Shown here piece after piece: positions 8,172 to 17,873 of a stretch of DNA of 24,000 nt (its first letter is position 1; each line of letters starts with the position of its first letter). The DNA comes from Erysipelotrichaceae bacterium (GTDB taxonomy: Bacteria > Bacillota_I > Bacilli_A > Erysipelotrichales > Erysipelotrichaceae). Location of the stretch: NCBI GenBank assembly GCA_022772735.1, contig JALEZD010000023.1, positions 99,791 through 123,790 on the forward strand. Reading direction: 5' to 3'. Under the pieces are notes generated by a model, which searched no databases, had not been told where the DNA came from, and worked only from the letters and a program-made list of their open reading frames with translations. Made by a program: the position numbers and the translations under genes.

Positions 8172-9044
8172 ATGAGTTTTAGTATGCTTAGAAACAAAAT
8201 AAATAACAGTTGGCTAATTTCTATAATCCTTGTTTGTTTATCTAGTTTAGTTCAAACATATGTCCTTCAAACTTTTGTAAAATCTGCTAATCTACTTTCA
8301 TCAGGATTTAGTGGTTTATCAATACTTATACATAGAATATTAGCATTATATCATATAAATTTTCCTATTTCTTTGGGTTTATTGTTATTTAATGTTCCTT
8401 TTGCAATTTTATGTATAAAAAATGTTTCATTTAAATTTGCAGTTATTTCAACAATACAGTTTATGATGACTTCATTTTTACTTTTGGTATGTAATTTTAA
8501 ACCTATATTTGATGATGTGATTTTAAATTGTTTTATTGGTGGATTTGTATATGGACTATCAATTTTAATAGCTTTAGGGGCAAATGGTTCTACTGGTGGA
8601 ACAGACTTTATTGCGATGTATGTGTCAAATAAAATTGGTAAATCTATATGGTCATATGTTTTTTGTTTTAATGCATTTATACTTATTGTTTTTGGATTTA
8701 TTGCTGGATTTGAAAATGCTGGTTATTCTATAATTTTCCAATTTATAAGCACTCAAACAATTGAAAGATTTTATCATAGATTTGATCAAGTAACTTTACA
8801 AATCACTACATATAAACCAAATGAAGTTGCACAAAAATATATAGAAAAGTATAGACATGGAATGACAATAACAAAAAGCTATGGTGCTTACAGTAAAAAA
8901 GAGCTGTTTTTATGTCATAGTGTTGTTTCAAGCTATGAAGTAAGTGATATGATAAAGCTTATTAAAGATGTAGATAATAAAGCTATAATAAATGTTTTTA
9001 AAACCATGAATTTTTATGGTGGTTTTTATAGAGAAAAGATATAG
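8172..9044 (+). CDS. YitT-family membrane protein (with a DUF2179-like C-terminal domain)
   Basis: 290 aa with about 5-6 TM segments and a GGTDFIAM motif. The C-terminal soluble domain reads TITKSYGAYSKKE...VVSSYEVSDMIKLIKDVDNKAIINVF, which is typical of YitT/DUF2179. A GAGGGG RBS is present. Confidence 0.75.
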   Translation: MSFSMLRNKINNSWLISIILVCLSSLVQTYVLQTFVKSANLLSSGFSGLSILIHRILALYHINFPISLGLLLFNVPFAILCIKNVSFKFAVISTIQFMMTSFLLLVCNFKPIFDDVILNCFIGGFVYGLSILIALGANGSTGGTDFIAMYVSNKIGKSIWSYVFCFNAFILIVFGFIAGFENAGYSIIFQFISTQTIERFYHRFDQVTLQITTYKPNEVAQKYIEKYRHGMTITKSYGAYSKKELFLCHSVVSSYEVSDMIKLIKDVDNKAIINVFKTMNFYGGFYREKI

Positions 9045-9065
9045 TTAAATTAAGGAGGAAAAACT

Positions 9066-10025
9066 ATGTGGGCTATAATTGGTACTTGGAGAATGTCTTT
9101 GGAGGCTATAAGTAATGTTTCAAAGAAGTTAAAAAACAATGAAATTGATGCAGGTGGTGCAGTTGTTGAAAGCATTAGTGAAATTGAAGATTTTCCGTAT
9201 TTTAAATCTGTGGGATATGGTGGGTTACCAAATGAAGAAATGGTTGTTGAGCTTGATGCTGGATACATGGATGGTAGAGATTTTTCAATTGGGGCAATAA
9301 TGGCAATTAAAGATTATAAAAATCCAATAAAAATTGCATATGAATTATCTAAAGAATATACAAACTGTGTTTTAGTTGGTGAAGGTGCAGAAAAATATGC
9401 ACATAAAAATGGGTTTGTTAGACAAAATATGTTGAGTGATAGAGCAATAATTCACTATAAAAAAAGAGTAAAAGAAAATCTTGAACAAGAATTAAAACCA
9501 TATATAGGGCATGATACAGTTGGTATTTGTGTTTTGGATAATGATGAAAATATTTGTGTAGGAACTTCTACATCAGGTCTTTTTATGAAAAAAGCTGGAA
9601 GAGTTGGAGATAGTCCAATAATAGGTTCTGGGTTTTATGCTGATTCAAATATCGGTGCATGTAGCGCTACAGGACTTGGAGAAGATTTGATGAAGGGATG
9701 TATATCTTATGAAGTTGTTTCACTAATGGATAAAGGTTTATCACCACAAGAAGCTTGTGAAAAGGCGGTTTATGATTTAAAAAATAAATTGCTTAAAAAA
9801 AGAAAAAAAGTAGGAGATTTATCTATTGTTGCGATTGATAAAAACGGTAATTTTGGTTGTGCTACAAATATTGATAATTTTTCATTTGTTTACGCAAGTG
9901 AAAAACAAGAACCTATTGTTTATTTAGTGAAAAAAGAAGAAAATGGAAAAATGATTTTTGAAAAAGCAAGTCAAGAATGGTTAGACGATTATTTAAAGAC
10001 AAGGATGGCGAAATTAGAACTATGA
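9066..10025 (+). CDS. Glycosylasparaginase-type Ntn hydrolase (N4-(beta-N-acetylglucosaminyl)-L-asparaginase; Asparaginase_2 family), cytoplasmic
   Basis: 319 aa with no signal peptide. It has an N-terminal IGTW motif, SVGYGGLPNEE..VELDAGYMDG, the autoprocessing/nucleophile motif GHDTVG (Thr151, 9516-9518) and GRVGDSPIIGSGFYAD. These resemble aspartylglucosaminidase more than IaaA-type isoaspartyl peptidase, but I could not test this by alignment. A strong AGGAGG RBS is present. Confidence 0.7.
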   Translation: MWAIIGTWRMSLEAISNVSKKLKNNEIDAGGAVVESISEIEDFPYFKSVGYGGLPNEEMVVELDAGYMDGRDFSIGAIMAIKDYKNPIKIAYELSKEYTNCVLVGEGAEKYAHKNGFVRQNMLSDRAIIHYKKRVKENLEQELKPYIGHDTVGICVLDNDENICVGTSTSGLFMKKAGRVGDSPIIGSGFYADSNIGACSATGLGEDLMKGCISYEVVSLMDKGLSPQEACEKAVYDLKNKLLKKRKKVGDLSIVAIDKNGNFGCATNIDNFSFVYASEKQEPIVYLVKKEENGKMIFEKASQEWLDDYLKTRMAKLEL

Positions 10026-10750
10026 ATTATTTAGAAATATGTTGTGGTAGTTATGAAGATGCATTAAATGCATACAAAGGAAACGCAGATAGAATAGAGT
10101 TGAATAGTGCTTTGCATTTAGGAGGTTTAACACCGAGTCTTGCAACATTTAAACTGGCAAAACAGGTTATAAATATTCCAATAATTTGCATGATTAGACC
10201 AAGAGGTGCAGGTTTTAAATATACAAAATATGAAATAGAAACAATGTTTGAAGATGCAAAGATTTTTCTTGAAAATGGTGTAGATGGTTTAGCTTTTGGT
10301 TTTTTAAATGATGATTATAGTATAGATATTGAAAATACAAAAAAAATGGTAGATTTAATTCATTTATATAATAAAGAGGCAGTATTCCATAGAGCATTCG
10401 ACATAAGCAATGATCTTAAAAAAAGTATAGAAACTTTAATTGAATTAAATGTTGATAGAGTTTTAACAAGTGGTGGATATTCTAATGTAACATTAGGTAA
10501 AGATAATTTAAAAAAATTAAGTGAATATCAAAATAAAATTGAGATTTTAATGGGATCAGGCATTAATGAAAATAATGTAAAAGAAATAATAGAATATACA
10601 AATATTAATCAAGTACATAGTAGTGCAAAAACATGGATATTTGATAATACAACTGGGAATGATAAGCTAAATTATAGGTTTGTAGAAGATAATGTATATG
10701 ATATAGTTGATTTAAATAAGGTTATTAAACTAAAGGAGAATATTAAATGA
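10022..10750 (+). CDS. cutC: CutC-family TIM-barrel protein
   Basis: It matches E. coli and human CutC along its full length: LEICCGS..A..GNADRIELNSAL..GGLTPS, MIRPRG, FHRAFD, RVLTSG and VHSSA. The ORF track begins at 9977. I prefer ATG 10022, which overlaps the upstream stop as ATGA (10022-10025). Confidence 0.88.
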   Translation: MNYLEICCGSYEDALNAYKGNADRIELNSALHLGGLTPSLATFKLAKQVINIPIICMIRPRGAGFKYTKYEIETMFEDAKIFLENGVDGLAFGFLNDDYSIDIENTKKMVDLIHLYNKEAVFHRAFDISNDLKKSIETLIELNVDRVLTSGGYSNVTLGKDNLKKLSEYQNKIEILMGSGINENNVKEIIEYTNINQVHSSAKTWIFDNTTGNDKLNYRFVEDNVYDIVDLNKVIKLKENIK

Positions 10751-11829
10751 GAAAATTTGGTGTAAGTATTTATCCAGCACATTCAAACTGGGAAAAAGAT
10801 TATGAGTATTTAAAAAAGGCTTCTAAACTAGGATATTCAAGATTGTTTATGTGTTTACTATCTGAAAAGGATACTTTAGAAAATATTGTAAAAAAATATA
10901 AAAATATTTGTGATAAGGCGCATGAATTAGGTTTTGAAATTTCAGTTGATACTAATTTCAATGTTTTTAAAAGATTAAATGCTAGTGCGTTTGATTTAAG
11001 TGTTTTTAAAGAGATTGGAATTGATATTATAAGATTAGATGGACCATTTACAAATAATGACTATGTTGCGATGACAAACAATCCATTTGGAATAAAAATA
11101 GAATTTAATGGATGTACTTATTTAAATTTAGAGTATCTAATTGAAATTGGTGCAAATAAAAATAATATGGTTGTATGTGCAAATTTCTATCCACAAAGAC
11201 ATACAGCAGTAGATGTTGATTTATATTTAGATTTTTGTAACAGATTTAGAAGTTTAGGAATAAGAAATGCAGCATTTGTATCAAGTAATAATGAAAATAC
11301 TTTTGGTCCATGGGAAGTATATGAAGGATTAGTTACTATTGAAGAATGTAGAGATATGGATATTTGTGATCAAGCAAGACTTTTAGTAGCTTTAGGTGTG
11401 GTTGATGATATATTTATTGGAAATTGCTATGCAAGTGATGATGAACTTGAAAGATTAAGCAAAGTTGATTTAAATACAATTTGTTTGAAAATTGAAGAAA
11501 ATAATATACTAGATGAAGAAAGTAAAATTTTATATAACTCTATACACTTTAGAAGACTTGATTGTGGCAAAACAATGATTAGATCATCATTTACAAGAGA
11601 TAATAGATCATTTTATGTTCCATTTAAAAAATATGAAAATTCTAAGGTTTATTCTGGAAGTGTTACTATAATAAATGATAATTTAAAGCATTATGGAAAT
11701 GAGGTACAAATATTATTAAAAGATATTAATAATGATGATACTAGAAATGTTGTTGGATATTTAAATGAATTTGAAATGAAACTTGTTTCGTTTATTAAAA
11801 TTAATCAAATTTTTAAATTTATAAAATAA
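10747..11829 (+). CDS. DUF871 / MupG-family protein (putative 6-phospho-glycosidase)
   Basis: 360 aa. The N-terminal GVSIYP start, overall size and PTS context are typical of DUF871, whose characterised member is the S. aureus MurNAc-6P-GlcNAc hydrolase MupG. There is an ATGA overlap with the cutC stop (10747-10750) and an AAGGAG RBS. Confidence 0.65.
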   Translation: MRKFGVSIYPAHSNWEKDYEYLKKASKLGYSRLFMCLLSEKDTLENIVKKYKNICDKAHELGFEISVDTNFNVFKRLNASAFDLSVFKEIGIDIIRLDGPFTNNDYVAMTNNPFGIKIEFNGCTYLNLEYLIEIGANKNNMVVCANFYPQRHTAVDVDLYLDFCNRFRSLGIRNAAFVSSNNENTFGPWEVYEGLVTIEECRDMDICDQARLLVALGVVDDIFIGNCYASDDELERLSKVDLNTICLKIEENNILDEESKILYNSIHFRRLDCGKTMIRSSFTRDNRSFYVPFKKYENSKVYSGSVTIINDNLKHYGNEVQILLKDINNDDTRNVVGYLNEFEMKLVSFIKINQIFKFIK

Positions 11830-11842
11830 GGGAGAAACTTAA

Positions 11843-12415
11843 ATGAATGAAAAATCAAGGGGCGGATATTTAGTTAAAAGAGTTTTTGCGTTTGGAATTG
11901 ATTGGTATTTTACAGCAGTTATTGCGAATATTATATCTGTTTTATTTAACGTTTTAATTTTTAAAGAAAGTTTACCGATAAAACCAACTGATCAATCTAA
12001 GATTTTATGGTTTATTCTTGCGTGTTTTATTGCAAGCTTATTCACATACATTTATATACCTTTAAAAAGAAAAAATAATCAAACTATTATGCAAAAAGTA
12101 TTACAACTTGAAGTTGTTTCAATTAATGGTGAAAAATTAAGTATTAAAAATCATTTAATTAGATTTTTTGTTGGATGTCTTATTCTGGAAAGTGCTTTAT
12201 ATATTTTTTCTGCACAATTCACAAGCTATTTTCTTTATTTGATATTCCCATTACAAATTCAAGCATATATTTCATATTTACTTATTATAATTTCAATAGT
12301 TAGTCTAATTTTTGCATTTGTTGATAAAAAAAATACTCAAACATTCCACGATAAAATATCAAATAGCAAAGTGATTGATGTGGGTTTCCTAGATAAAGGA
12401 AAAAAACTTCTATAA
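11843..12415 (+). CDS. RDD-family integral membrane protein
   Basis: 190 aa. It has N-terminal KRVFAFGIDWYF, three TM segments and C-terminal FHDKISNSKVIDV, which fits the RDD-domain pattern. A GGGAG RBS is present. Confidence 0.55.
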   Translation: MNEKSRGGYLVKRVFAFGIDWYFTAVIANIISVLFNVLIFKESLPIKPTDQSKILWFILACFIASLFTYIYIPLKRKNNQTIMQKVLQLEVVSINGEKLSIKNHLIRFFVGCLILESALYIFSAQFTSYFLYLIFPLQIQAYISYLLIIISIVSLIFAFVDKKNTQTFHDKISNSKVIDVGFLDKGKKLL

Positions 12416-12462
12416 AAATATGTGTTAATTATGTGAGAATAGTATCAGAAAGGTGTGATGCT

Positions 12463-12783
12463 ATGAAAAGATTTTATTTATTTTGTAGTGCTGGGATGTC
12501 TACAAGTCTTCTTGCAAGTAGAATGCAAAAAGTAGCTGATGCTCATAATTTGCAAATAGAAATTAAAGCATTCTCAGACAAAGAAATGCCAATGATTGTT
12601 GAACAATACAATCCAGATGTAATCTTATTAGGACCACAAGTTAAACATATATTTGGCAGAGTAAATGAAAAATATGGCGACAAAATACCTGTATTTGTCA
12701 TAGACAGTAAAGATTATGGGGAAGTAAATGGTGAAAGGGTATTAAAAGTTGCTATAAAAGCTTATAAGGAAAGAAAGGGATAG
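12463..12783 (+). CDS. PTS EIIB component, lactose/cellobiose (ChbB/LicB) family
   Basis: MKRFYLFCSAGMSTSLL carries the phospho-Cys motif. The length is about 106 aa. The ORF track starts at GTG 12433. I prefer ATG 12463, preceded by GAAAGGTG. Confidence 0.85.
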   Translation: MKRFYLFCSAGMSTSLLASRMQKVADAHNLQIEIKAFSDKEMPMIVEQYNPDVILLGPQVKHIFGRVNEKYGDKIPVFVIDSKDYGEVNGERVLKVAIKAYKERKG

Positions 12784-12786
12784 AAT

Positions 12787-14133
12787 ATGTTTGAAAAGTT
12801 AGAAAAGTTATTAACTCCTGTTGCGAACTCTTTATCTAAAAATAAAATATTGATTGCAATAAGAGATGGTTTCATGATTACAGTTCCTATTACTATTGTT
12901 GCATCAATATTCCTATTGTTAGCAAATTTCCCTATTGAAGGGTGGTCTACATTTATTGCAGGATTCTTTGGTGAAGGTTGGGAACAACATTTAGCAAGAG
13001 TTACAAGAGTTGGGTTTAATACAATTGCATTATTAGGTGCACTTGGTATTGGATATGCTTACTCACGTGAAGAAGGTATTGATAATAAAATTGCTGGTGG
13101 TGTAGTTGCAATGGTTTGCTTCTTAATCATATCTCCACAAGCTCATCCAACATTTGTTAATGAAGGTGGTTCATCTTTTAGAGGTTTCTCGTTAACACAC
13201 TTAGGAACTGCAGGTATGTTCTTATCAATGCTTACAGCAATAATTTCAGTTAAAATTTTTGGTTGGGCATTAAAGAAAAACTTAGTAATTAAATTACCTG
13301 ATGGAGTTCCTCCAATGGTAATGGATTCATTTGCTTCATTAATTCCTGCAGCATTCGCAATATTGTTCTTCTTTGTTGTGAATATTATTTTCTCAAATAC
13401 AAGTTATGAATATGCTCATAATTTTATTTATCAAGTATTACAAGCGCCTTTAACAGGTTTAGGACAATTAAGTATATTTGAGGTTATTTATCAATTCTTA
13501 TCTACTTTATTCTGGTTCTTCGGAATTAATGGTCCAGCTGTAACAAATACAATTTTTGGACCAATTCATAAAGCATTAACTCTTGAAAATTTAAATAATT
13601 TTGAAGCTGGAAAACCAATGCTTAATATTTTCACAGCTGGTTTCTCTGATTTCTTCTGTAATTTTGGTGGTGGAGGTTCAACACTAGGGTTAGTAATAAT
13701 GATGTCTACAATTGGTAAATCAAGTAGAATTAAAACTTTAGGTAGATTATCTCTTCCAGCTGGTATATTTGGAATTAATGAACCAATTATATTTGGTTTA
13801 CCAGTCGTATTAAATCCTATTATGGCTGTACCATTCATTTTAACACCAGTTGTTAATACAATTCTTGCAACTGTGGCAACTTATATTGGATTCATTCCAA
13901 TCACAAGTGGTATTCAACTTCCTTGGACAATGCCTATTGTTTTCTCAGGATTTTTAGTAACAGGAACAATTAGAGGCGCAATCTTACAAATCTTCTTATT
14001 AGCTGTTAATATGGCAATTTATTATCCATTCTTAAGAATTTTAGATAATAAATATTTAGAAGATGAAAAGAACGCTGTTTCTGAAAAAGATGAAATTGAT
14101 GATTTATCATTTGATGATTTGTCATTAGATTAA
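12787..14133 (+). CDS. PTS EIIC permease, lactose/cellobiose family
   Basis: 448 aa. The N-terminus reads LTPVANSLSKNKILIAIRDGFMITVPITIVASIFLL. It has about 10 TM segments and the typical FGINGP, GGGGST and INEPIIFG motifs. It ends in an unusual acidic tail of about 26 aa. Confidence 0.9.
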   Translation: MFEKLEKLLTPVANSLSKNKILIAIRDGFMITVPITIVASIFLLLANFPIEGWSTFIAGFFGEGWEQHLARVTRVGFNTIALLGALGIGYAYSREEGIDNKIAGGVVAMVCFLIISPQAHPTFVNEGGSSFRGFSLTHLGTAGMFLSMLTAIISVKIFGWALKKNLVIKLPDGVPPMVMDSFASLIPAAFAILFFFVVNIIFSNTSYEYAHNFIYQVLQAPLTGLGQLSIFEVIYQFLSTLFWFFGINGPAVTNTIFGPIHKALTLENLNNFEAGKPMLNIFTAGFSDFFCNFGGGGSTLGLVIMMSTIGKSSRIKTLGRLSLPAGIFGINEPIIFGLPVVLNPIMAVPFILTPVVNTILATVATYIGFIPITSGIQLPWTMPIVFSGFLVTGTIRGAILQIFLLAVNMAIYYPFLRILDNKYLEDEKNAVSEKDEIDDLSFDDLSLD

Positions 14134-14134
14134 T

Positions 14135-14656
14135 ATGAAGATTGTTGTAATTTTTGATCAAGGATTGTCAGGATTAGGCGGAAAGAGTAATCTAGACTTA
14201 CCACTTACAATTCAAAAAGGTAGTGTAGGAACTGGACTTATTTTGAGTCAACATTTAAATAAAGTAAATGCTGAAATAATCGCTACATTATCTTGTGGAG
14301 TAAATACATTTAACAATGATAAAGAAAACACAGTATTAAAGTTATGTGCTATGGTTAAAAAGATAAACCCTGACTTTGTACTTGTTGGTCCATGTTTTGA
14401 TTTTAAAGATTATGCATTAATGAGTGCAATGACTTGTAAATTATTAAAAGAAAAATCAATAGCCAAAGCTGTTAGTATGATGTCTATTGAAAATAAAGCA
14501 GTCATTGATGAATATGCCAAAGAAATTGACATAATTAAAATGCCTAAAAAAGGTGGAACAGGATTAAATGATAGTTTAGCTGATCTTTGTGAATATATTG
14601 AAACATTAAATAATCAAGATAAACTTGATGAGCTAAAGAAAAGAATATGTTATTAA
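14135..14656 (+). CDS. Small protein resembling the N-terminal domain of glycine/sarcosine/betaine reductase component B (GrdB-like, no Sec domain)
   Basis: 173 aa. By my recollection, several segments parallel the GrdB N-terminus. MKIVVIFDQGLSGLGGKSN..KGSVGTG parallels VHYINQFF.GIGGEEKA...G.VGPG. LVGPCFDFKDYALMSAMTCK parallels AGPAFNAGRYG.ACG. MMSIENKAV parallels ENPGV. The ORF ends with TAA and has no in-frame TGA. The family assignment is from memory only. Confidence 0.4.
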   Translation: MKIVVIFDQGLSGLGGKSNLDLPLTIQKGSVGTGLILSQHLNKVNAEIIATLSCGVNTFNNDKENTVLKLCAMVKKINPDFVLVGPCFDFKDYALMSAMTCKLLKEKSIAKAVSMMSIENKAVIDEYAKEIDIIKMPKKGGTGLNDSLADLCEYIETLNNQDKLDELKKRICY

Positions 14657-14679
14657 AGGTTGCTTTAGCAACCTTTTTG
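14656..14679 (+). terminator. Intra-operon terminator-like hairpin (possible attenuator or partial terminator)
   Basis: AAGGTTGC-TTTA-GCAACCTT forms an 8-bp stem (4 G:C pairs) and runs into TTTTT. It starts at the last base of the upstream stop codon. It ends 12 nt before the next ATG, and that gap holds only the RBS GAAAGGAAA. Confidence 0.5.
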
Positions 14680-14690
14680 AAAGGAAAAAT

Positions 14691-15713
14691 ATGAATATTG
14701 ATAGATTAAAAAAATTAGTTGATATTTTTTCTGTATCAAGCTATGAAGATGAATTAAAAAATTTTTTTAAAAAAGAATGTGAAGAAAAAGATTTTATTGA
14801 AGATAAATTAGGTAGCATTTTTTATCTTAAAAAATCAAAAAATCCCCAAGCTAAAAGGGTTATGATTGCATGTAGTAAAGATGAAGTTGGTTTAATGATT
14901 AAAGAGGTTTTTGAAGATGGAACTTGTAGTTTTATAACTCTTGAACCACTTAGCCCTGCAAGTCTTTTACATCAAAGAATAAATATTTTAACAAGAGATA
15001 ATAAAATTATTGAGGGATTTATTTTTTGCAAAAATGTAAAGTTTAATGAAGTTCCTTTAGAAACAATAAAAATTGATGATTTAAGTATTGATACAGGTGA
15101 AACTGATGCAAAAAACTTAATTAAACCTGGAGATATATGTGGATTTAAAAATCAATTTTGTAAAGTAGGCAATAGAGTTATTTCTAAAGGTTTAAATCAA
15201 AAAACTTTTATAGAAGTTATTTTGTGTACTATTGAAAAGTTAAAAGATATTGAATTAGATTTTGAAATTGCATTAGGTATTGTTGCACAATCTACAATTG
15301 GATTTAGAGGAAGTAAAACTGCAAATTATGTTGTTAATCCAGATTTAGCAATCGTCATAAATGGGTTTGAGGTTAATAATTCTAATCCTAAAATAAATTT
15401 AAATGATGGTTTTATTGTTTCTCAATTTGATAAACAAATGTTGCCAAACAGATTGCTTTTAAACGATATAAAATCTAAATATAATTACAAAGAATATTTT
15501 GGAATAATTGGTAATGATGGTTCATTTATTCATAAAACAATGAATGGAGTTAGTTGTGTTAGTGTTGGTATTCCAATAAAAAATATTCATACAAGTGTAG
15601 AAATGATAGATTTGTTGGATGTTAAAAAGTTAGAGGACAACTTGTTTGATTATATAATGACTTTAAATAATGAAAAAATAATCAAACTTGGGGTGAGTGA
15701 ACATGAGTTTTAA
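14691..15713 (+). CDS. M42-family peptidase paralog with degenerate metal and catalytic residues (likely pseudo-peptidase)
   Basis: 340 aa, collinear with the downstream M42 gene. At the conserved positions it has CSKDEVG versus THVDEIG (His to Ser), GLNQK versus AFDNR (Asp to Asn) and AQSTIGFRG versus TQEEVGLRG (Glu-Glu to Ser-Thr). It also has AIVINGF versus AFAIDTT (Asp to Asn). Only the C-terminal His is kept (IKNIHTS versus IRYMHSN). Confidence 0.75.
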   Translation: MNIDRLKKLVDIFSVSSYEDELKNFFKKECEEKDFIEDKLGSIFYLKKSKNPQAKRVMIACSKDEVGLMIKEVFEDGTCSFITLEPLSPASLLHQRINILTRDNKIIEGFIFCKNVKFNEVPLETIKIDDLSIDTGETDAKNLIKPGDICGFKNQFCKVGNRVISKGLNQKTFIEVILCTIEKLKDIELDFEIALGIVAQSTIGFRGSKTANYVVNPDLAIVINGFEVNNSNPKINLNDGFIVSQFDKQMLPNRLLLNDIKSKYNYKEYFGIIGNDGSFIHKTMNGVSCVSVGIPIKNIHTSVEMIDLLDVKKLEDNLFDYIMTLNNEKIIKLGVSEHEF

Positions 15714-16752
15714 ATTATTAAAAGAATTAAGTGAAATTCCTTCTATTTCTTCAAATGAATATTTAATATGTGATTATATAAAAGATAAGTTAAACACTAT
15801 AGGATATAAATATAGAGTTGATGGATTAAATAGTGTTATTGCTTATAAAGAAAATACTTTAAATCCTTTAAAATTTATGATTGCTACTCATGTTGATGAA
15901 ATTGGGTTTATTGTAAAAAGTATTGATAATAGTGGGTTTATAAAAATGGAAGCTGTTGGCTCATGGTGGTCACATTTGGTCATGGGGCAATTAATGGAGA
16001 TAACAACATCTGAAAATAAAAGATTTTTAGCCCTTGTTGGAAGTCTTCCAACACATGGTATAAAAAAAGAAATAAAAGAAAGAACTATTGATTTAAATGA
16101 TTTATATTTAGATTTAGGTGTTTCAAGCAAAGAGAGTGTATTAAAACTTGGTATAAATATTGGCGATATGATAACTCCATATGCAAAAACACAAATGATG
16201 AATGAATATGGTTATGTTATCTCAAAAGCATTTGACAATAGAATAAGTACATACATTCTTATGAGATTTTTAGAAGAGGTAAATAATAAAAATAATATTT
16301 TTGGAGCTTTTACAACTCAGGAAGAAGTTGGATTGCGTGGAGCTAGAACATCAACAAATATGATAAAACCTGATATCGCTTTTGCGATTGATACAACTCT
16401 TGCAGGAGATACACCACTTACTAAAAATATATGTAAATTAAATGGTGGAGTTGTTTTATCAATGATTGATTCAAATTCAATTGCACCTAGAAAATTAATA
16501 AGGTATTTAGAAAATTTATGCAATAAAAATAATATTAAATATCAATATGCAGTTTTTAATGGTGGAGGAACTGATTCAGGTAATATACACAAATCATTAG
16601 ATGGTATATTAAATTTAACACTGTCTATTCCTATAAGATATATGCATTCTAATTATTCAATGGTAAATTTAAATGATGTTGAAGAGTGTATAAAATTATT
16701 ACTTGCGATTAATGAAGATATTACTTTAGATAAGATAGAGGAACTTATATGA
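15703..16752 (+). CDS. M42-family metallo-aminopeptidase (FrvX/YsdC/TET-like), ligands intact
   Basis: All canonical M42 motifs are present: HVDEIG, AFDNR, QEEVGLRGA, AIDTT and RYMHS. The ORF track starts at GTG 15697. I prefer ATG 15703, after the GGGGTGAG RBS. Either start overlaps the upstream gene end (15713). Confidence 0.85.
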   Translation: MSFKLLKELSEIPSISSNEYLICDYIKDKLNTIGYKYRVDGLNSVIAYKENTLNPLKFMIATHVDEIGFIVKSIDNSGFIKMEAVGSWWSHLVMGQLMEITTSENKRFLALVGSLPTHGIKKEIKERTIDLNDLYLDLGVSSKESVLKLGINIGDMITPYAKTQMMNEYGYVISKAFDNRISTYILMRFLEEVNNKNNIFGAFTTQEEVGLRGARTSTNMIKPDIAFAIDTTLAGDTPLTKNICKLNGGVVLSMIDSNSIAPRKLIRYLENLCNKNNIKYQYAVFNGGGTDSGNIHKSLDGILNLTLSIPIRYMHSNYSMVNLNDVEECIKLLLAINEDITLDKIEELI

Positions 16753-17873
16753 GAAATGAATTATTTAAAGCTATTGATGAATTAAAAGATAGTCTAATTA
16801 ATGATGTGTGTGATTTAGTAAAAATAGAAAGTATTCAAGGTGAAAGTACAGTTGATTTTCCATATGGTAAAAATGTGAATGATGCTTTAAGTCACGCCCT
16901 TAAAATTTGCGAAAGGGAAGGTTTACTAACAAAGAATATTGATAATCAAATGGGTTATGGGCAATATGGAGAATCTAAAGAATATATCGGTATTTTTGGG
17001 CATTTAGATGTTGTTGAAGTGGGTGATGGTTGGAAATATCCACCTTTTAGTGCAACTATTAGTGAAAATAAAATATGGGGTAGAGGTGCTTTAGATAATA
17101 AAGGACCAATAATTGCAGCGTTATATGGATTATTAGCATTAAAAAAATTAAATATATGTCCTAAAAGAGCCATTAGAATTGTTTTTGGAACAAATGAAGA
17201 AACAGGAATGAATGATATAAAATATTATTTGGAAAAAGAAAATCCACCGATAATGGGATTTACACCAGATAATAAATTTCCTGCAATTTATGGTGAGCGT
17301 GGAAGAGCAGTAATTGAAGTAGAAAATGAAATTTCTTTAATGGTTGATTTTATTAATGAATATTTTATGAATGCAAAACCTAATGGTGATAGATTAGGTA
17401 TAAATGTTTTTGATAATGATTTTAAAGAAATGATTATTAGAAATAAAAAAATAGATTATAAAAATAATAAAATGTCCATCAAGTTTAGTTTGAGTACACC
17501 AGTTTGTGATATTAATGAAATTATTGAAAAAATATCATTAAAATCTAATGGTGGAAATGTTAAGTTAATTTCATGGTCACCTTGGGTTTTACATAATAAG
17601 GATGCAACATTAATAAAAATTTTAAATGATGCATATAATGAAATTTTTGATACAAATCTAGAGCCAACAACTACTACAGGTGGAACTTATGCTCATATTT
17701 GTACAAATATAATTCCATATGGACCATCTTTTCCAGGTCAAAATGGAATTGCTCATCAACCAAATGAGTTTATAGATATTGATGATTTAATTTTATGTGC
17801 GAAAGTTTATGCATATGCACTTTATAAACTATCATTAATAGATGAAATTGAAAAACCACTTATTTTGAAATAG
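16749..17873 (+). CDS. M20-family dipeptidase (PepV/Sapep-like, short lid region)
   Basis: 374 aa. Motifs are GHLDVVEVGDGWKYPPF, GRGALDNKGP, GTNEETG, GFTPDNKFPAIYGERG and C-terminal GGTYAH. It is about 90 aa shorter than typical PepV. There is an ATGA overlap with the upstream stop (16749-16752). Confidence 0.85.
   Translation: MRNELFKAIDELKDSLINDVCDLVKIESIQGESTVDFPYGKNVNDALSHALKICEREGLLTKNIDNQMGYGQYGESKEYIGIFGHLDVVEVGDGWKYPPFSATISENKIWGRGALDNKGPIIAALYGLLALKKLNICPKRAIRIVFGTNEETGMNDIKYYLEKENPPIMGFTPDNKFPAIYGERGRAVIEVENEISLMVDFINEYFMNAKPNGDRLGINVFDNDFKEMIIRNKKIDYKNNKMSIKFSLSTPVCDINEIIEKISLKSNGGNVKLISWSPWVLHNKDATLIKILNDAYNEIFDTNLEPTTTTGGTYAHICTNIIPYGPSFPGQNGIAHQPNEFIDIDDLILCAKVYAYALYKLSLIDEIEKPLILK

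Follow-up and report, generated by a model that had tools for sequence, protein, structure and literature searches.

In the window, a stretch of 24,000 nucleotides (nt) from the genome of an Erysipelotrichaceae bacterium (assembly GCA_022772735.1, contig JALEZD010000023.1, positions 99,791 to 123,790), two genes for M42-family peptidases stand in tandem on the forward strand. The window is poor in G+C (~25%) and comes from a 1.79-Mb genome. M42/TET aminopeptidases are self-compartmentalised homo-dodecamers. The downstream gene (15703..16752) encodes an intact M42 aminopeptidase, in which the five metal ligands, the catalytic Glu and the PPH-type loop with its His (LPTHG here) are all present. 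Its open reading frame (ORF) codes for 351 or 349 amino acids, depending on whether it starts at 15697 (an alternative GTG) or at 15703 (ATG). The upstream gene (14691..15713) encodes a catalytically dead 340-residue paralog with the two-domain M42 fold; the evidence comes from its Pfam match, its ligand columns, an AlphaFold2 model with Foldseek comparisons, and the ratio of nonsynonymous to synonymous substitution rates (dN/dS). We refer to the two products as the dead and the live copy. The dead protein matched the Pfam Peptidase_M42 profile (PF05343) with an E-value of 4.4e-39 over residues 41-314 (profile positions 1-289 of 292) and a score of 134.7 bits against a cut-off of 23.2; the E-value for the live protein was 5.9e-89. 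In a pairwise alignment the two copies were collinear, with 26% identity (E 4e-24). The live copy aligned to YsdC (1vhe) with an E-value of 6e-68, catalytic motifs included, and to PhTET2 with an E-value of 4.5e-60. For both copies the best NCBIfam model was NF007421, an enterobacterial "aminopeptidase" equivalog, and both scored below its cut-off.

The dead gene stops with TAA at 15711-15713 and the ATG of the live gene is at 15703, which gives an overlap of 11 nt when read from the sequence. Both ORFs and their overlap (15703 versus 15713) are thus as the original prediction described them. A Shine-Dalgarno-like GGGGTGA for the live gene (15690..15696, forward strand) can be read within the last codons of the dead gene, 6 nt from the ATG at 15703. 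The earlier proposal that the two genes are coupled was retained when we examined orthologous loci: at the ten dead-to-live junctions for which coordinates were read, eight showed an overlap of 4–17 nt and two a gap of 0–1 nt. The dead gene and its live M42 neighbour are therefore probably translated together.

To locate the active-site positions, we set the ligand columns by alignment to solved M42 structures (MJ0555, 9qr6, and PhTET2, 1y0r) together with 43 homologues, and we number them according to PhTET2 (PMC8993905). The live copy has the complete ligand pattern, HDDEEDH. In the dead copy, His68 is replaced by Ser62 (codon 14874-14876, forward strand, as are all the following codons), Asp182 by Asn169 (15195-15197), the catalytic base Glu212 and the ligand Glu213 by Ser201 and Thr202 (codons 201-202 at 15291-15296), and Asp235 by Asn224 (15360-15362). 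His323 is kept as His300 (15588-15590), and the Asp of the HxD motif is retained as Asp64. The four ligand substitutions and the loss of the catalytic Glu that had been noticed from the two translations are therefore real in structure-based alignments.

The dead copy belongs to a clade of similarly altered proteins, the dead clade, of which 37 members including the window copy were aligned. In these proteins the column of His68 contains Ser, Ala, Pro, Asn or Cys, that of Asp182 contains Asn, Phe, Ser, Thr, His or Tyr, that of Glu213 contains Thr, Val or Ile, and that of Asp235 contains Thr, Cys, Asn, Ser or Ala. The catalytic Glu212 is Ser in 37 of 37. The column of His323 contains Gly, Asp, Ser, Asn or Tyr, and His occurs only in the window copy and its closest relative. 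The claim that the upstream copy keeps only the last His is thus correct for the window, and this His is a lineage-specific relic; none of the five metal ligands is conserved across the dead clade. Several other positions that are near-invariant in M42 are lost as well, namely the His of the PPH loop, the Asp and Gly of the fiDiG motif, the Asp that follows the ligand Asp, a Gln, and the Arg of the RY.H motif. The PPH-loop His (PhTET2 His123), which is present in 88% of the M42 family (PMC8993905), is Lys in the window dead copy and in 76% of the clade. These results show that the dead protein cannot be a binuclear metallopeptidase.

The loss of all catalytic residues might be taken as the mark of a decaying duplicate that has not yet acquired stop codons. 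A search of 5.8 billion proteins returned at least 59 dead-clade clusters (39-99% identity, E <1e-68), beyond which the matches fell sharply to ordinary live M42s. All of these orthologue clusters were intact, with the ligands lost, and 36 columns were invariant across the clade. In a profile search of 1.84 billion representatives, about 15-20 clusters at 50% identity had the dead-clade pattern, and many further M42 homologues were degenerate in other ways. Full-length dead orthologues are found in at least two named taxa, Helcococcus kunzii and metagenome-assembled genomes (MAGs) of Lachnospiraceae. In public records they are called "hypothetical protein", "zinc-binding metallopeptidase family protein" (Helcococcus kunzii), or "M42 family metallopeptidase" and "putative aminopeptidase FrvX" (Lachnospiraceae MAGs).

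We calculated dN/dS for three close pairs, aligned by codon, in which dS was not saturated (0.37-1.07); only close pairs were used because larger distances were saturated (dS >1.5 or undefined). Between the window's own genome and one of the same genus (L060/L065), dN/dS was 0.063 for the dead gene and 0.072 for the live gene. The values were 0.109 and 0.050 in the second pair (L062/L064) and 0.060 and 0.072 in the third (L068/L070). The dead gene is under strong purifying selection, about the same as its live partner. At greater depth the dead protein diverges ~1.2-1.4 times faster, with 38-46% identity versus 48-58% for the partner, which would also be expected of a gene in decay. The AlphaFold2 model of the dead protein, built on the clade alignment, was confident, with a predicted local distance difference test score (pLDDT) of 88 and a predicted template modelling score (pTM) of 0.90. 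It has the two-domain fold of a TET subunit, with a catalytic domain and a PDZ-like dimerisation domain, and Foldseek aligned it to full-length TET subunits (9qr6, 4wwv, 5ds0, 1vhe and 1y0r) with template modelling (TM) scores of 0.83-0.89 over ~340-360 columns. A pseudogene is hardly credible against dN/dS values of 0.06-0.11 in three independent pairs, dozens of full-length, stop-free orthologues in named taxa, the invariant columns and the confident fold, and we regard it as excluded by the selection analysis and the retained predicted fold. The view that the upstream copy need not be a decaying gene was borne out by the same dN/dS values and by more than 50 intact orthologue clusters. All orthologues examined were open and full-length.

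We next considered the relationship between the dead gene and its neighbour. Look-ups of nine dead-clade proteins led to ten places. Wherever the contig was long enough, the gene order was IIB and IIC of a phosphotransferase system (PTS), a GrdB-like gene (NF041545), the dead M42 and the live M42. An M20 gene was nearby, Asparaginase_2 was present in most loci, and MupG-like, CutC, YitT, RDD and a Mga/PRD regulator were usually present. A sample of 300 genomes of the class contained four with the dead clade, all of the window's family and each with a live M42 directly downstream. In a survey of 251 genomes of the family, in which the partner-clade live M42 was called at 475 bits or more, 13 genomes carried this gene. 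Twelve of the 13 had the dead gene directly upstream, and in the thirteenth the live gene was at a contig end. Two other M42 genes, both intact, lie elsewhere in the genome of the window. In phylogenetic trees, the dead clade and the partner clade were each monophyletic, with a support of 100 in the SH-like approximate likelihood ratio test (SH-aLRT), and their internal groupings matched; the two genes have therefore stayed together ever since the dead state came about. The dead clade has a single origin, and the dead gene strictly adjoins, and co-diverges with, one clade of live M42.

Three of the four sampled genomes of the same genus (G100, G381 and G427) were without the M42 pair at the thresholds used, and the pair is therefore accessory. 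Subclades of the pair are scattered over genera of the family. Together, the patchy presence and the scatter indicate that the operon behaves as an accessory, probably horizontally moving module.

To see which parts of the dead protein are constrained, we compared column entropies in the 37 aligned sequences. The most conserved segment is residues 201-220 (codons at 15291..15350, forward strand), with a mean column entropy of 0.75 versus 1.62 for the whole protein. This segment equals the PhTET2 helix that contains the dimer-dimer interface residues R217, R220 and F224, which, with H248 and I292, are the residues of the PhTET2 pentamutant (PMC4220976). By sequence alignment, the equivalent of R217 (Arg206) is Arg in 37 of 37 sequences, that of R220 (Lys209) is Lys in 30 of 37, and that of F224 (Tyr213) is Tyr in 30 of 37 and Phe in four more. 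At the position of I292, 30 of 37 sequences have Tyr, and H248 falls in a loop that cannot be aligned. Of the six columns that once held the ligands and the catalytic base, five have mid-range entropy, between the 36th and the 58th percentile. There are precedents for contacts between M42 paralogs: PhTET2 and PhTET3 form 6:6 and 8:4 heterododecamers built from homodimers (PMC4220976), and the B. subtilis paralogs YtoP and YsdC are cross-linked in cells (PMC10090944; PDB 9a5r).

Because of the invariant adjacency, the co-divergence, the conserved oligomerisation helix and these precedents, we infer that the dead protein is, on balance, rather probably a non-catalytic subunit of a hetero-oligomeric TET-like peptidase formed with its live neighbour. 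The upstream gene product would then be a pseudo-peptidase that keeps the TET fold and the oligomerisation surface and has lost the binuclear metal site. It would be made together with the downstream live M42 through coupled translation, and the two would assemble into a mixed TET-like particle, either from dead dimers and live dimers, as with PhTET2 and PhTET3, or from heterodimers. Peptides would be cleaved only by the subunits encoded downstream. The contribution of the dead subunit could be spacing, chamber shape, gating, or the holding of a bulky glycosylated substrate. For the glycan-binding role that the original prediction had offered as an example, we found no evidence.

Some of the conserved residues fit a different explanation, in which the M42 scaffold has been re-used in the same pathway as a stand-alone protein, without co-assembly with the live M42. 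Candidate jobs for such a protein are binding of the sugar-phosphate or the peptide moiety of a substrate imported by the PTS, metal-independent hydrolysis, or partnering with the GrdB-like protein. Clade-invariant residues do lie at or near the old active site: Ser201 is present in 37 of 37 sequences, Asp64-Glu65 is kept, the loop Asn275-Asp276-x-Ser-Phe-Ile-His-Lys is invariant, and the clade has Glu85 and Phe226 in place of the residues of live M42. The selection on the gene is as strong as on true enzymes, and the dead gene always follows the GrdB-like gene. However, most positions of the old pocket vary within the clade, including the equivalents of the PPH loop, D137, D236, Q281 and R312, which argues against a conserved new site there, and the most constrained segment is the oligomerisation helix. 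The GrdB-like gene is also found in PTS operons without M42 and so does not need the dead copy. We consider a stand-alone function possible, although not the probable explanation.

The evidence for association applies equally to a negative regulator, that is, a dead subunit that co-assembles mainly to limit or gate peptidase activity. Such a subunit would act as a dominant-negative "spacer", shielding cytosolic peptides from a broad aminopeptidase unless the substrate of the operon is present. In PhTET2 the loop His reaches the active site of the neighbouring subunit and acts on it, and H123 mutants, including H123K, have a poorer Michaelis constant (KM) (PMC8993905); as described above, Lys is the prevalent residue at this position in the dead clade. 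On the other hand, both genes of the pair are induced from a single operon, so that a built-in inhibitor seems wasteful, and cassettes of two live M42 genes work without an inhibitor. A primarily inhibitory role therefore appears improbable to us.

Several points weigh against a mixed particle of dead and live subunits. Adjacency and co-divergence would be equally expected of any gene pair within a single mobile operon. The TmPep1050 ligand mutants H60A and H307A are in the PDB beside an entry titled "dimeric TmPep1050" (titles only). Dutoit and colleagues are said to have found in 2019 that TmPep1050 ligand mutants stay dimers. The re-oligomerisation of PhTET is metal-induced (PMC4220976). 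Since metals drive the step from dimer to dodecamer in M42, a metal-free subunit may not enter the dodecamer. Furthermore, the dead subunit is without the PPH-loop His, so that the live site in a dead:live heterodimer would lose the His that a neighbour provides. A particle of dead homodimers and live homodimers avoids this last problem; the problem of metal-dependent assembly remains. Natural fusions of two M42 domains, described below, are of limited help here, as they belong to other M42 lineages and were seen at the DNA level only in locus L130.

The trees also bear on the origin of the dead gene. Among the nearest relatives of the partner clade are the downstream genes of another tandem pair, which occurs in eight genomes and has a live upstream gene. 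Wider fetches showed that this live-live cassette has the order Mga/PRD regulator, RDD, IIC, IIB, GrdB-like, M42 and M42. In two of these genomes the upstream copy is partly eroded: in G326 (C34, L087; wider L092) the bridging Asp is changed to Gln, and in G320 (C100, L086; wider L093) an Asp is changed to Glu, another Asp to Gly, and a His to Tyr. These two upstream copies are thus part-way to the dead state, with intact downstream partners. The downstream M42 was intact in all 21 complete pairs of the family scan. The PPH His is missing from the upstream live copies as well, and an R-N-x-H-T motif is common to them and the window dead copy.

A recent tandem duplication of the neighbour was rejected as the source of the dead gene. 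The dead clade was not sister to the clade of its neighbour in either tree, and forcing the two together gave a tree 18.6 log-likelihood units (lnL) worse than the free tree, with a p-value of 0.077 in the approximately unbiased test (p-AU). Trees in which the dead clade was held with the type-A or the upstream-live lineage were 14-17 lnL better than the free quick tree. Owing to the long branch of the dead clade (stem ~1.1-1.2), this topology evidence is suggestive and not decisive. With this long-branch caveat, the dead gene is best read from the trees and gene orders as the upstream gene, now degenerated, of an old cassette of two paralogs rather than a recent duplicate of its neighbour.

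Loss of catalysis is also seen in other M42 arrays. Loci fetched with a fusion protein as the query contained M42 arrays of two or three genes, which are common in Clostridia; 45 three-gene arrays were sampled. The third gene of these arrays, which are of the TM1048-1050 type, is an orthologue of TmPep1050 (E 4e-91), an active leucyl aminopeptidase that forms homododecamers (PMC3511314). In 8 of the 45 arrays (L095, L096, L098, L101, L102, L103, L126 and L144), most of the catalytic residues of this third gene have been lost independently; among the genomes concerned are isolates of Clostridium frigidicarnis, C. senegalense and Hathewaya limosa. M42 arrays have therefore repeatedly lost catalysis in one of their members. 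We rejected the idea that absence of the PPH His by itself marks inactivity, as the third gene of the triple arrays is PPH-less and orthologous to TmPep1050, which is active although it has no such His either. Among the 150 best representative matches, seven were two-domain M42-M42 proteins of ~700 amino acids (P0134, P0154, P0166, P0172, P0205, P0213 and P0234), and P0213 combines one intact M42 domain with one degenerate domain. The only fusion seen at the DNA level was a 736-residue ORF in L130 (1042-3252), and the others could be gene-calling artefacts. Such natural fusions suggest that the members of an array contact each other.

The closest known systems share some of these features. PhTET2 and PhTET3 of Pyrococcus horikoshii are, like the window pair, two M42 paralogs of the same two-domain fold. 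They form mixed 12-subunit particles from dimers, as is proposed for the window pair. In the helix that follows the catalytic Glu-Glu, PhTET2 has the dimer-dimer contacts R217, R220 and F224, and the dead protein has Arg, Lys and Tyr. Both archaeal subunits are active with complementary specificities, in contrast to the dead partner in the window, which is without metal site, catalytic base and PPH-loop His. The papers that we read do not describe an overlap between the two archaeal genes, whereas the window genes overlap. YtoP-YsdC of Bacillus subtilis is a bacterial case of two M42 paralogs in contact; its integrative model (PDB 9a5r) was the second-best structural match of the dead-copy model. 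To our knowledge, ytoP and ysdC are not adjacent in B. subtilis. The TM1048-1050-type arrays of Thermotoga and Clostridia consist, like the window pair, of tandem, overlapping M42 paralog genes, and their third gene lacks the PPH His; its loss of catalytic residues in some arrays is the trend also seen in the window. The dead clade differs from these arrays in being a separate lineage, in lying in a PTS operon, and in being the first gene of a two-gene array. The enterobacterial genes frvX, ypdE and sgcX resemble the window pair in being M42 genes within PTS operons of unknown substrate. As far as we know, they are single, apparently intact copies without a dead partner. In the searchable literature we found no account of dead M42 subunits, nor of a PTS/GrdB-like/M42/M42 operon, and we found no paper describing a conserved non-catalytic M42 subunit before.

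The window carries the same gene set as the orthologous operons. Upstream of the M42 pair, on the forward strand, are the PTS IIB and IIC genes of the lactose/cellobiose family (12433..14133; PF02302 and PF02378; TIGR00410, 380 bits) and the gene for a GrdB-related protein without selenocysteine (14135..14656; NF041545, 201.6 bits versus a cut-off of 175), which directly precedes the M42 pair in every locus examined. A stem-loop with a 9-bp stem followed by a U-rich stretch (14655..14676, forward strand; -11.2 kcal/mol, z -2.6) lies between the GrdB-like gene and the dead M42. A hairpin directly after the GrdB-like stop was found in six of seven orthologous loci as well as in the window (L042:924-945, L043:4605-4626, L044, L006, L008 and L045). 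The stems, with energies of -11 to -21 kcal/mol, are unrelated in sequence between loci, so that position and structure are what is conserved. This hairpin could set the ratio of transport to peptidase proteins, either by terminating some of the transcripts or by an effect on mRNA processing or stability. Downstream, the start of a gene for an M20 (Sapep/PepV-like) dipeptidase of 374 amino acids (16749..17873, forward strand; TIGR01887, 318 bits, above the cut-off) overlaps the live-M42 stop (ATGA). The M20 protein matched Sapep/PepV profiles of 447-466 positions in two separate stretches and is ~80-90 residues shorter, which suggests a reduced lid or dimerisation domain. No PTS IIA gene (PF02255) was found in the window operon (8172-17873) or in L043. 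In most orthologous operons (L006, L010 and L044-L047) a PTS IIA gene follows the regulator or Asparaginase_2 gene and precedes the RDD or IIB gene.

GrdB-like genes above the NCBIfam cut-off were also found in PTS operons without M42 (L048-L052 and L056, in genomes G130, G153, G209, G258, G202 and G174). These operons carry Asparaginase_2 and M20, M20 alone, or CutC and M81 (MlrC-like). In five of the six loci the GrdB-like gene directly follows a lactose/cellobiose-type PTS IIC gene; in the sixth, L051, it is flanked by an ORF of ~106 amino acids and by RDD and IIC genes. The constant partner of the GrdB-like gene therefore seems to be the PTS transporter. Since NF041545 genes occur in PTS operons without any M42, we rejected the idea that the GrdB-like gene is obligately paired with the dead M42. 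The two M42 genes are thus an optional module of a family of PTS operons in which a sugar transporter is combined with enzymes that cleave amides or peptides. Given the other genes present (Asparaginase_2, MupG-like, CutC, M20 and GH73), the operon probably degrades an imported glyco-amino-acid or a glycopeptide/muropeptide. The Lactobacillus casei glycosylasparaginase/PepV operon has a similar logic (PMC6960285).

We know of M42 hetero-oligomers only from archaeal in-vitro work and from one bacterial cross-linking case, and always with active subunits. A more general proposal, which we hold to be doubtful at present, is that tandem-encoded bacterial M42/TET peptidases are generally obligate hetero-oligomers in which one paralog repeatedly turns non-catalytic, and that the dead subunit of the PTS operon is a specificity adaptor. 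Such an adaptor would admit or hold a PTS-imported peptide bearing a sugar-phosphate for trimming by the live subunits, and the general arrangement would parallel the inactive beta subunits of proteasomes. If this proposal is true, the window clade, the eroded upstream copies of the live-live cassettes and the degenerate third genes of the TM1048-1050 arrays would be independent instances of one rule. The finding also bears on annotation, as public records name the dead proteins as metallopeptidase, "aminopeptidase FrvX" or hypothetical, and it gives a further hint on the association of PTS sugar transporters with M42 peptidases, which has long lacked an explanation. If the mixed particle is real, this dead paralog, conserved, under selection and strictly paired with a live copy, would be the first TET subunit described as non-catalytic, and the pair would offer a tractable system for the role of a dead subunit in assembly, gating or substrate selection.

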